DNA of 64,000 bases from a virus. Its lineage: Duplodnaviria; Heunggongvirae; Uroviricota; Caudoviricetes. Each line of letters opens with the position of its first letter. Positions within the stretch are counted from its first letter, which is position 1. The position numbers and the translations under genes are program-made. The stretch lies in IMG/VR virus record IMGVR_UViG_3300023371_000080, one strand, 5' to 3'. Positions 230 through 1,866 of this stretch are shown here, piece by piece. The notes below the pieces were generated by a model, which made no database searches, was not told the origin of the DNA, and was given only the letters and a program-made list of their open reading frames with translations.

Positions 230-500
230 ATATATTCTTGTAATATCACCGTAATTAAATTGTTTGTACTTCTTCTTTCTTTAGACGCAAGTATGTCTAG
301 CCTAATTTTTAATGTGTCAGGAATACGTAGCGTAAAAGCACATATATCTTCTTTTGCCATTTATATCACCACCCTACTCTATTATAAAATAATAATAATA
401 TGGTGTCAAATTGGTATTATTTTTTAAAAGGTATTGCATCATTTTAACCAATGTGGTATCATAAAGACACCAAGCAATGGTAAACATTGCATAACAATGA
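230..500. promoter_or_regulatory. AT-rich non-coding region upstream of tubR with imperfect repeats (candidate tubC-like centromere / promoter)
   Basis: Repeated CCAAnnTGGTAw-like motifs (aaccaatgtggtatcat; accaagcaatggtaaac; caaattggtattat); ORF 131..427 is low-complexity and overlaps the terminator. Confidence 0.25.
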
Positions 501-506
501 AAAACA

Positions 507-767
507 ATGGGAGGAAATGATATGAATAGACTAGCTTTACTTATTTTGGCAACACTTCAACAGTCTAAAGCAACAGTAGTCGTATCGGCGATGAGTGTAT
601 ATGAAATTCAAAAATATGCGAATTTGCAGCAATCAATCACCACGTTACATAGGGCTATGAATTTTTTATTAGATGAACAATATATTAAACAGGGATTAAA
701 GGATTCAAAATCAAACACATTTTATTTAACGCCAACAGGCGAACAAATTATTAAGGAGATGTTATAA
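507..767 (+). CDS. tubR: small DNA-binding protein, TubR-like partition adaptor (by size and position immediately upstream of TubZ)
   Basis: 86-aa ORF, 1-nt gap to tubulin-like GTPase gene, SD before ATG; wHTH-like composition. Confidence 0.45.
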   Translation: MGGNDMNRLALLILATLQQSKATVVVSAMSVYEIQKYANLQQSITTLHRAMNFLLDEQYIKQGLKDSKSNTFYLTPTGEQIIKEML

Positions 768-768
768 T

Positions 769-1791
769 ATGAATGAACAATTTGGAATTATCGGACTTGG
801 GGCTGGAGGCAGTAATATTGCCAATCTATTCGAAGCTAAAAATTATACCACCATGTATATCAATACGAGTATTGAAGATTTAAACTGTATTAAAGGGGTT
901 CATAAGTTAGCGATTTCTGGGGCGGAAGGGGCTGCAAAGGATAGAAAAAGAGTTTTACAACTTGCAATGGAATCATTTGGAGATATTGTTCAAAAAATAG
1001 AAAGTGTAATCGCGCAAAAGTATGTGGTTGTTATCTTTAGTGCTGGGGGCGGTACAGGAAGTGGCTTATCTATTCCCATACTTAAATATTTAACTCAAAT
1101 AGGAAAAATTTGCATCCCAGTGATGATACTGCCTGACGGTCACTCTTCGGCTAAGGTAAACGAAAATGCTTATAATGCCTGTGCAGAGCTAATGTCCATT
1201 CAAGGATTAGGGGCAACATTCTTACTAGATAACTCCAGAGGCGACAAATTTGCCATTAATAACCGTTTTGCATGCGAGCTCGACTCTTTTATCAATTTAC
1301 AAAACTCAAGCGTACATGGCAACATAGACAAGGCTGAGCGTAAGCAAATGCTTTCTTGTCCAGGCGTTGCTGTTATTGGTAAAGTAAGTAAAGCGAAAAG
1401 TGTAGCGTCTGAACTTGTTGATAGTCTTTATAATGGAATACATGCCGAAATAACATCTAAAAATGCCTATTATTTAGGCGTAAGTACATCAAATAGATCT
1501 TTAGACATAGAAAGTATCACCTCTACTTTCTCAAGCGTTTACGATGTTTTTACAGGCACATCGGAGGCAACTTCAATAATCATAGCAACTGGCTTACAGT
1601 TTCCACAAAAGAAAATTATAGAATTTAGGAATAATTTTGAAAAAGTTGTTAAGACTATGAATGACACCAATGTTATGCAGACTTTCGAGCCGTTGGAACC
1701 ACTTAAGGGATTGTCATTCACACCGACTGCTATTCAACCTCAAGCACCAACGAGCCCGAGAGATATTCTCTTGGGGCTATTGAACAATTAG
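769..1791 (+). CDS. tubZ: TubZ, tubulin/FtsZ-superfamily GTPase (type III partition NTPase)
   Basis: N-terminal GIIGLGAGGSNI glycine loop and tubulin signature motif GGGTGSG; 340 aa. Confidence 0.75.
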   Translation: MNEQFGIIGLGAGGSNIANLFEAKNYTTMYINTSIEDLNCIKGVHKLAISGAEGAAKDRKRVLQLAMESFGDIVQKIESVIAQKYVVVIFSAGGGTGSGLSIPILKYLTQIGKICIPVMILPDGHSSAKVNENAYNACAELMSIQGLGATFLLDNSRGDKFAINNRFACELDSFINLQNSSVHGNIDKAERKQMLSCPGVAVIGKVSKAKSVASELVDSLYNGIHAEITSKNAYYLGVSTSNRSLDIESITSTFSSVYDVFTGTSEATSIIIATGLQFPQKKIIEFRNNFEKVVKTMNDTNVMQTFEPLEPLKGLSFTPTAIQPQAPTSPRDILLGLLNN

Positions 1792-1792
1792 G

Positions 1793-1821
1793 GCTACCGA
1801 AAGGTAGCCTTATTTTTTTTA
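1793..1821 (+). terminator. rho-independent terminator after tubZ
   Basis: GGCTACC-GAAA-GGTAGCC hairpin followed by TTATTTTTTTT. Confidence 0.5.
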
Positions 1822-1823
1822 CG

Positions 1824-1866
1824 ATTATAGCCAAAAGAAAAGCCCTATGCAGATGCATAGGACATT
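1824..1866 (-). terminator. terminator-like hairpin downstream of recombinase gene
   Basis: Palindrome GCCCTATGCA..TGCATAGGGC followed on minus strand by T-rich tract. Confidence 0.35.

Follow-up and report, generated by a model that had tools for sequence, protein, structure and literature searches.

A c-st-type tubR–tubZ cassette and its candidate centromere in the genome of a large uncultivated gut phage

Introduction

The IMG/VR virus record IMGVR_UViG_3300023371_000080 carries, near the left end of the 64,000-nucleotide stretch that we analysed (hereafter the window), a small gene followed by a gene for a tubulin-like GTPase. This raises the question of what a tailed phage does with a gene pair that resembles a plasmid partition system. 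A first-pass annotation of the window had read the pair as a TubR/TubZ type III cassette and as the signature of a phage-plasmid lifestyle. The Clostridium botulinum phage c-st is a plasmid prophage, and the role of TubZ in its partition has been published; to our knowledge, studies of phage TubZRC systems are so far limited to c-st and its close relatives in C. botulinum. The window comes from a large uncultivated tailed gut phage, a distant relative of c-st, and covers the arm of its genome that serves replication and nucleotide metabolism. The cassette is almost certainly a TubZRC (type III) partition module of the c-st type. It is real and already known in kind, and it varies from the studied systems in a conserved ribbon-helix-helix (RHH) gene, in the missing TubY (in the window and the flanks that were read) and in a very compact candidate tubC. 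Concerning its function, we propose the stable inheritance of a circular, low-copy plasmid prophage by TubZRC of the c-st lineage, and we give this statement as a whole a probability of about 0.6.

Identity of the tubR–tubZ pair

Both genes are located on the plus strand. The open reading frame (ORF) of 86 codons that had been described earlier is present at 507–767; the homologues and the metagenome gene callers mostly prefer the start at M6 (position 522), which gives tubR the coordinates 522–767 and shortens its product to 81 amino acids, 507 being the alternative upstream start. The stop codon TAA (765–767), a single base and then the 340-amino-acid ORF of tubZ (769–1791) follow each other, in agreement with the 1-nt gap noted before, and the tubZ ribosome-binding site AGGAG sits within the 3' end of tubR. 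We compared about 14 distinct loci, found on IMG/VR contigs of 128–175 kb and on one contig of a metagenome-assembled genome (MAG). In 14 of 14 loci the small winged-helix gene lies immediately upstream of tubZ in the same operon.

The product of tubZ contains the T1 loop GLGAGGSN and the tubulin signature GGGTGSG (residues 93–99), the motifs on which the GTPase assignment had been based, as well as a T7-like GNxDxxE motif at residues 184–190. It scores above the Pfam cut-offs of Tubulin (47.8 bits, cut-off 33), TubZ_C_3 (33.6 bits) and Tubulin_2 (28.2 bits). The best phmmer matches in PDB are those of c-st TubZ, 4XCQ (E 4e-29) and 3V3T (E 2e-28), over residues 9–290; FtsZ (2e-6) and the Bacillus cereus TubZ/RepX (1e-5) match more weakly and PhuZ is absent among the matches of this search. 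The AlphaFold2 model has a predicted local distance difference test (pLDDT) score of 83.6, and Foldseek matches it to 3V3T with E 7e-24, a template modelling (TM) score of 0.89 (TMt) and a root-mean-square deviation of 2.3 Å. CetZ, Bacillus TubZ and FtsZ are six orders of magnitude worse (5e-18 or weaker), and the top 50 PDB matches all belong to the tubulin superfamily (TubZ, CetZ, FtsZ).

Two other identities were considered for the GTPase. Cellular FtsZ is ruled out by the NCBIfam FtsZ model TIGR00065, against which the protein scores 17.6 bits (cut-off 295), and by the gene context, which is that of a phage. PhuZ was rejected as well: the similarity is limited to the N-terminal GTPase domain and a TubR partner is present. 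In PHROG, the c-st TubZ family is matched with E 2.5e-29 versus 1.7e-12 for PhuZ, the PhuZ match extending only over residues 4–188, and BLAST against the phiKZ PhuZ covers 123 amino acids (E 4.5e-7). The phylogenetic comparison with TubZ, PhuZ and FtsZ that the first-pass annotation had suggested was carried out as a small neighbour-joining tree with FtsZ assigned as the outgroup. The family is monophyletic (bootstrap 100) and stands beside the c-st TubZ clade, as sister to c-st, C. perfringens pCP_P201 and C. botulinum p2 (bootstrap 62). PhuZ and the pBtoxis TubZ branch further out, and a specific grouping with Bacillus TubZ is not resolved by the tree. By sequence, fold and the NCBIfam model, the protein does not group with cellular FtsZ.

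An alignment of 30 TubZ sequences has 84 invariant columns, including the nucleotide-binding motifs and the tail tip PRD-L--L; the invariant residues comprise G94–G99, N185, D187, E190, P330, R331, D332, L334 and L337. Judged by this alignment, TubZ is under strong purifying selection. The linker at residues 301–326 is predicted to be disordered (pLDDT < 50) and a terminal helix is found at 330–339, while the C-terminal tip PRDILLGLLNN is conserved and nearly invariant. The same pattern of a flexible tail with a conserved hydrophobic tip is seen in c-st TubZ, the tip of which binds the segrosome and neighbouring subunits (PMC5322520). Based on homology and structure prediction, tubZ encodes a predicted polymerising GTPase in which the GTP-binding site and the T7 loop are intact.

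The small protein is, by the same two lines of evidence, a true TubR homologue and a predicted minimal winged-helix centromere-binding protein. Its phmmer match in PDB is 6TEY, the 81-amino-acid TubR of c-st from C. botulinum (E 1.3e-7), over residues 10–84, which is nearly the whole length. The AlphaFold2 model (pLDDT 82.7) is a winged helix; its top Foldseek match is again 6TEY (E 1.6e-5, TM-scores 0.69/0.73), and the TubR structures of pBM400 and pBtoxis (4ASN and 3M8E) are also recovered. PHROG assigns the protein to phrog_17403 (E 4.5e-8). The TubR of c-st and that of the window have the same size of 81 amino acids and align end to end. Both proteins of the pair are therefore closest to c-st TubR and TubZ by sequence and predicted fold, and the earlier reading of a TubR/TubZ type III cassette stands.

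The cassette had also been described as flanked by terminators, and terminator-like hairpins are indeed found at 179–206 (both strands), 1789–1812 (plus strand) and 1863–1842 (minus strand); seven such hairpins were observed in 4.2 kb versus 1.7 expected. The one at 179–206 is a bidirectional intrinsic terminator, with an 11-pair stem and a T run on the plus strand and a mirror hairpin on the minus strand at 205–180, and it closes both the late arm on the plus strand (holin-like gene, 4–171) and the RHH gene on the minus strand. The tubRZ terminator (1789–1812, plus strand) has a 10-pair stem followed by T8 and coincides with a sharp junction at which phage lineages have recombined. The hairpin at 1863–1842 ends a convergent recombinase gene.

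The upstream spacer and the candidate centromere

Positions 230–500 had been proposed as a 270-bp AT-rich candidate centromere. Part of this region is in fact a gene: 205–360 encodes, on the minus strand, a 51-amino-acid RHH (CopG/Arc-like) DNA-binding protein (Pfam RHH_5, E 1.1e-5; phrog_2685, E 4.4e-10; Arc-like repressor, E 1.3e-6), and the true intergenic region is 361–506 (146 bp). The part of the proposal that holds is the presence of repeats upstream of tubR. These had been described as CCAAnnTGGTA-like and resolve into two short motif classes, GGTRT and CAWTG.

The RHH gene is found in the same position in 14 of 14 distinct related loci, with 33–46% amino acid identity, and is divergent from tubRZ with its own ribosome-binding site and promoter. 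The RHH promoter (381–409, minus strand) consists of TTGACA (409–404), 17 nt and TATAAT (386–381). It fits the consensus at 12 of 12 positions, it is the best site within 1–4200 and its -35 and -10 columns are conserved in the 14-locus alignment. The putative tubRZ promoter (434–462, plus strand) was read from the sequence as TTGCAT (434–439), 17 nt and an extended -10 box, TG-n-TATCAT (454–462); relatives have TTGACA-17/18-TATCAT in the aligned columns. The consensus scan missed this promoter because its -35 box fits at just three of six positions. Across the 14 aligned loci the architecture of the spacer is fixed, with the two promoters back-to-back and divergent.

Class A repeats (GGTRT/TGGTRT; 401–473, plus strand) start at 402, 413, 430 and 455, a fifth copy at 467 being inverted, and cover the gap between the two promoters as well as the -10 box of tubRZ. 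Class B repeats (CAWTG; 449–519, plus strand) start at 449 and then at 475, 485, 495 and 505 with a 10-bp period, running into the tubR ribosome-binding site. Both motifs, with five copies each, form here their densest 120-bp cluster in the 64 kb (for GGTRT, the background is 0.39 per 120 bp). The Poisson P of about 5e-5 for the repeat motifs is optimistic, because they were chosen after the region had been seen. Arrays of three CAWTG units with a 10-bp period occur in the window only at 475–519 (expected 0.05, observed 3; 0 of 100 shuffles equal this), and the autocorrelation at lag 10 is 0.53 (p = 0.002). Among 53 fetched loci the CAWTG array is found in only 12, always upstream of tubR; all of these have the window's own TubZ and 11 of the 12 also hold a complete TubR at 100% identity.

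Relatives with a TubR of 35–45% identity have other cores at the same place, e.g. RGTGMT with a spacing of about 11 bp, or tandem 10-mers such as ATGAACACAA, ATGAGTGCAA and ATGAAAGAAG. In 11 of 14 loci the autocorrelation is highest at lag 10. The position of the repeats and their period of about 10 bp are thus kept, and their sequence differs between TubR lineages. In the systems studied, tubC lies upstream of tubR and overlaps its promoter, and c-st has two iteron classes (PMC6009700); in all type III systems that have been studied, the upstream repeats that act as operator also act as centromere (PMC6009700, PMC7762940). We regard the class A repeats as candidate binding sites of TubR or of the RHH protein and the class B repeats as a candidate core of tubC and the operator. 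The centromere is predicted, and likely, to be located at 401–519 (about 120 bp), where it would overlap the two promoters.

The repeats could instead be operators only, of the RHH protein and/or of TubR, with the true centromere elsewhere or nonexistent, which is compatible with the other readings of the locus discussed below. In favour of this, the repeats overlie the -35 and -10 boxes, the leader and the ribosome-binding site; the region measures only 146 bp; binding to short tandem repeats is typical of RHH proteins; and our scan covered 64 kb, together with flanks of about 20 kb, out of a genome of about 172 kb. Against this, studied type III systems use the same upstream repeats as both operator and centromere (PMC6009700, PMC7762940), and the periodic array is unique to this place in the 64-kb window and, among the 53 fetched loci, to the carriers of the window's TubZ. 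We find the operator-only explanation doubtful.

The RHH gene and the search for TubY

The RHH protein is a candidate regulator of the divergent promoter pair, as far as its gene position and family suggest. Weak RelB, HicB and FitA matches raised the possibility of an antitoxin, which was rejected because the terminator and the holin-like gene of the opposite strand come next and no partner gene is present. An ORF of 98 codons at 131–427 (plus strand) was judged spurious because of its overlap with the terminator and with the conserved RHH gene. Evolution is much faster in TubR and the RHH protein than in TubZ: TubR identity is 35–45% among relatives in which that of TubZ is 45–84%.

The MerR-like TubY was searched for by phmmer and tblastn with the proteins of c-st, C. 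botulinum p2 and pBtoxis, and none was found in the 64-kb window. It was also not found in the flanks, of which about 9 kb were read upstream of the window (contig L001) and about 8 kb past its right end (contig L040), the whole genome measuring about 172 kb. The best match of these searches has E 0.045 over 40 amino acids. Other TubRZ loci that were inspected are without an RHH gene. It is possible, although we put it forward only tentatively, that the locus represents a distinct four-part type III variant made up of an RHH regulator, a compact bipartite tubC, TubR and TubZ. In this variant the RHH protein would replace TubY, the centromere and operator would be packed together into about 120 bp between the back-to-back promoters, and the arrangement would be fixed across a large clade of uncultivated Clostridia phages of the herbivore gut (contigs of 130–175 kb).

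The phage genome and its relatives

The evidence for a tailed phage consists of the replication, nucleotide-metabolism and lysis genes in the window, the tail-fibre-like and holin-like genes upstream and the IMG/VR relatives. The window encodes DNA polymerase III alpha, a RecJ-like exonuclease, DnaB and primase, as well as NrdD/G, an NAD-dependent ligase and an NAD-salvage cluster; lysins and three recombinase-fold proteins are also present. The window's DNA polymerase III alpha shares 54.5% identity with the c-st enzyme and about 50% with the enzymes of phiCD211 and phiCDIF1296T. Megablast of 1–4200 and 20001–45000 against 50,697 phage records gave no match, and the phage has therefore no close cultured relative in this collection.

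Three independent ENA contigs, each of exactly 172,425 bp, among them ERZ27248370 k141_2760514, are three permutations of one sequence without host DNA; they carry the window's recombinase and downstream genes and the same replication arm. The stretches at about 1800–9852 and 51568–64000 are essentially 100% identical to sibling contigs. Nucleotide identity to the 172,425-bp sibling is 95–100% to the right of about position 1800 and 47–73% to the left of it, and left of the tubZ terminator the amino acid identities are 64% for TubZ, 44% for TubR and 38% for the RHH protein. This abrupt drop indicates that the window's phage is a mosaic sibling of a circularly assembling genome of about 172 kb. 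At this junction, 26–33 codons inside the recombinase gene, many short metagenome contigs come to an end. The JGI contig that carries the window, Ga0307249_10000186 (L001/L047), is 341,764 bp long, almost twice the 172,425 bp of the sibling, and may be a two-copy concatemer instead of a 340-kb genome. An exact 44-mer pattern that occurs in the fetched loci had no match in a metagenome contig collection, which does not include the source samples.

A scan of 185,579 species-representative genomes gave one match, the phage-sized MAG contig JBGVEC010000203.1 (L010; 165,582 bp). The label of this MAG, 'Paludibacteraceae' (Bacteroidota), was rejected as evidence of the host: the contig is probably mis-binned, since the sigma-70 promoters, GGAGG ribosome-binding sites, lysins and affinities to c-st and C. 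difficile phages indicate Clostridia. Concerning TubZ itself, 461 homologues were found at E ≤ 1e-5, across about four clusters at 50% identity. The search of 1.84 billion representative proteins returned 80 clusters at E ≤ 1e-30 and 321 at E ≤ 1e-10, so that the natural diversity of this TubZ lineage goes far beyond what the few studied examples would indicate.

Function of the cassette

In the mechanism that we propose, TubR would coat the GGTRT repeats and the 10-bp-periodic CAWTG iterons in the roughly 120 bp directly upstream of tubR, and the resulting nucleoprotein complex would repress the tubRZ promoter that it overlaps. At the end of its treadmilling filaments, TubZ would then capture the TubR complex by its C-terminal tip, and copies of the phage genome would be dragged apart. 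The RHH protein, expressed from its perfect consensus promoter, would probably set the expression of the cassette and replace the MerR-like TubY in its regulatory role.

The lifestyle that this implies, that of a phage-plasmid, had been proposed before and gains from the affinity to c-st and to the big plasmidial C. difficile phages, from the circular assemblies and from the Xer-like and MrpR/YopR-like genes. The latter are two adjacent genes of the tyrosine-recombinase fold at 51626–53646. The Xer-like one scores 161–168 bits with the XerA and XerC models, under their cut-offs. The other has a precomputed MrpR_C_cat match and a weak MrpR_N_CB match; BLAST of its product against CST030, the YopR homologue of c-st, was not significant, so that the assignment as a lysogeny repressor comes just from the weak or precomputed Pfam matches. 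MrpR/YopR is the master-repressor family of SPbeta (PMC10516654). From their sequences, the Xer-like gene and the more weakly matched MrpR/YopR-like gene suggest dimer resolution and lysogeny control.

Several observations weigh against inheritance as a plasmid prophage. Circularity was checked, as had been advised, and the sibling contigs assemble as a circle without host flanks, but a virion genome that is circularly permuted or terminally redundant would be equally expected to do so. Among the 185,579 species-representative genomes, neither a plasmid-borne nor an integrated lysogen was seen. TubY, which is required for plasmid stability in studied systems (PMC7762940), has no homologue in the window and the fetched flanks. 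The candidate tubC is about 120 bp long, whereas that of c-st is about 350 bp. The repeat search found no long iterons; the repeats emerge only as short periodic cores of 5–6 bp, which were picked after inspection of the region, and the 10-bp periodicity is individually weak in most relatives (p 0.03–0.8). Just 9 of the window's 103 ORFs match c-st at E < 1e-5. Also, a large serine recombinase of the integrase type adjoins tubZ in nearly all relatives.

This conserved recombinase makes integration possible, and it is the basis of one alternative, in which the phage integrates by means of the recombinase and tubRZ is accessory, serving a transient episomal phase or being a remnant of a c-st-like ancestor. 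The Resolvase, Recombinase and Zn-ribbon architecture of the 660-amino-acid protein is typical of phage integrases, it is adjacent to tubZ in 12 of 14 loci, and together with a 57-amino-acid ORF it is exchanged as a module, like integration modules are. SPbeta-type relatives integrate by the serine recombinase SprA (PMC10516654). The strong purifying selection on TubZ, which extends to the motifs and the tail tip, argues against a remnant. Recombinases for multimer resolution are commonly carried by phage-plasmids. Among the 14 contigs with an identical recombinase, none was found in which bacterial genes follow on the recombinase side, and a clearly integrated element with att sites was not encountered. 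We consider integration quite improbable as the explanation of the locus.

The proteins could also act in the lytic cycle, in a PhuZ-like manner, with TubZ filaments positioning or separating replicating genomes or factories and TubR as the DNA adaptor. This would fit the location of the cassette at the junction of the late and replication arms, where it recombines with the late arm and not with the replication arm, and the arrangement in Bacillus phage G, which has a tubulin and a small upstream ORF in the same order and which gave the weaker match of the two phage-encoded relatives that tblastn recovered. It would also fit the failure to find a lysogen in genome collections and a classical repressor among the approximately 45 proteins scanned. 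However, PhuZ-type systems are without TubR and a centromere, the match to PhuZ stops at the GTPase domain and the homology of the window's proteins is to the partition proteins of c-st, which have a published role in prophage inheritance. An apparently autoregulated, terminator-insulated operon with its own sigma-70-type promoter is more like a maintenance module than a lytic gene, and a candidate lysogeny repressor (MrpR/YopR-like) and an Xer-like recombinase are present. A lytic role is in our view unlikely, and partition of a plasmid prophage is the reading that we retain.

The TubZRC machinery is conserved across this diverse group of large, uncultivated gut phages, and about 75 further TubZ clusters at E ≤ 1e-30 exist beyond the roughly four described. 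If these phages are plasmid prophages, a sizeable share of the Clostridia gut 'virome' would be vertically inherited low-copy extrachromosomal DNA, which would change contig binning, host assignment and estimates of lysogeny. If the four-part variant is real, the phage clade would be a widespread phage-plasmid family. The diverged TubR/iteron pairs on a conserved TubZ tail are suited to studies of centromere specificity, and the presence of an RHH gene where TubY was not found would allow one to ask which components of type III partition are indispensable.

Comparison with known systems

The closest system is TubZ–TubR–tubC(–TubY) of c-st (CST189/CST190/CST188), which is also a phage-borne tubR–tubZ operon. 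Its TubR is likewise a minimal protein of 81 amino acids without dimerisation helices, its TubZ is similarly short (358 versus 340 amino acids) and two repeat classes upstream of tubR overlap the promoter, as here. A replication core of the DNA polymerase III alpha type is common to both phages. The identities are just about 30% for TubZ and 29% for TubR. The MerR-like TubY of c-st was not found in the window, downstream of tubZ or elsewhere. A conserved divergent RHH gene is present upstream in its stead, and a large serine recombinase adjoins tubZ. The non-coding region of c-st is about 500 bp versus 146 bp here, and its TubZ tail is acidic, whereas that of the window is approximately neutral and proline-rich.

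The Bacillus TubZRC systems (pBtoxis, pXO1/pBc10987 and pBM400) share a winged helix-turn-helix TubR, a tubulin-like TubZ and upstream operator iterons, and the window's TubR model superposes on the TubR structures of pBM400 and pBtoxis. Their TubZ is very distant (BLAST E 0.008 for pBtoxis; Foldseek E about 1e-15 for Bacillus TubZ versus 7e-24 for c-st); the proteins are larger (TubZ of 484 amino acids, dimeric TubR of 104), the iterons are 12 bp long and tubY lies upstream. PhuZ (phiKZ gp39 and 201phi2-1 gp59) is a phage tubulin with likeness only in the N-terminal GTPase domain (E 4.5e-7 by BLAST, 1.7e-12 in PHROG). Its C-terminal domain is unmatched; it has no TubR or centromere partner and centres the phage nucleus in lytic growth.

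The big C. difficile phages (phiCD211/phiCDIF1296T and phiCD5763) are large clostridial siphophages with a DNA polymerase III alpha about 50% identical to that of the window. They are circular, extrachromosomal 'plasmidial' prophages with cytoskeletal partition by ParM (PMC5786514). The filament is thus the actin-like ParM and not TubZ, and tblastn of the window's TubZ against a phage collection including these phages gave no match in them.

Neighbouring genes and other features of the window

The cassette had been described as the only plus-strand module of the window. This is incorrect, since the ORF at 4–171 (plus strand) is the 3' end of a 103-amino-acid holin-like gene; in the source contigs, genes for proteins of 227, 756, 1232 and 1327 amino acids (tail-fibre-like, DUF859) are found further upstream on the same strand. 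The apparent isolation of the cassette is an artefact of the window edge, which truncates the late arm of the plus strand; the cassette is therefore located at the hinge between the late arm and the minus-strand replication arm.

The large serine recombinase (1870–3852, minus strand; 660 amino acids; Pfam Resolvase, Recombinase and Zn_ribbon_recom) is convergent with tubZ. Its NCBIfam matches are CcrB/XisF-like, all under cut-off. Of the 14 distinct loci, 12 have it adjoining tubZ; it is absent beside tubZ in L013 and inverted in L020. Based on its sequence, this conserved neighbour may be either an integrase or a resolvase. The block of RHH gene (minus), tubR and tubZ (plus) and recombinase (minus) is syntenic where TubZ is 45–100% identical, and the cassette is kept in every related genome examined. 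The recombinase and the 57-amino-acid ORF (3919–4092) move as one module. In locus L030, the recombinase is 96% and the 57-amino-acid ORF 93% identical to those of the window while TubZ is just 64% identical, which marks 1870–4092 as exchangeable. The 57-amino-acid protein is without a family match and could be a directionality factor.

Tandem paralogous SleB-like cell-wall hydrolases (Hydrolase_2; 50–58% mutual identity) are located at 4225–5454 and fit a spore-forming Firmicute host. The region 17590–27328 contains six tRNA genes (Pro, Gln, Ser, Lys and two Leu) and an HNH endonuclease, together with an RNA-repair-like set consisting of a kinase/HD protein, a nucleotidyltransferase, a phrog_23333 'polymerase' and an RNA ligase. 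The Rfam search of the window found nothing beyond the six tRNAs. The NAD-salvage cluster at 28042–31493 comprises an NAD synthetase-like gene, nicotinamide phosphoribosyltransferase and ribose-phosphate pyrophosphokinase, and is possibly a counter-measure to NAD-depleting host defences. A 140-amino-acid protein encoded at 60232–60654 has an RNA polymerase alpha C-terminal domain (E 2.4e-8) and is a possible modulator of host transcription. About 3.5 kb past the right end of the window (L040, 5589–6851) there is a gene for a 420-amino-acid reverse transcriptase (RVT_1), which may belong to a diversity-generating or defence-related element.

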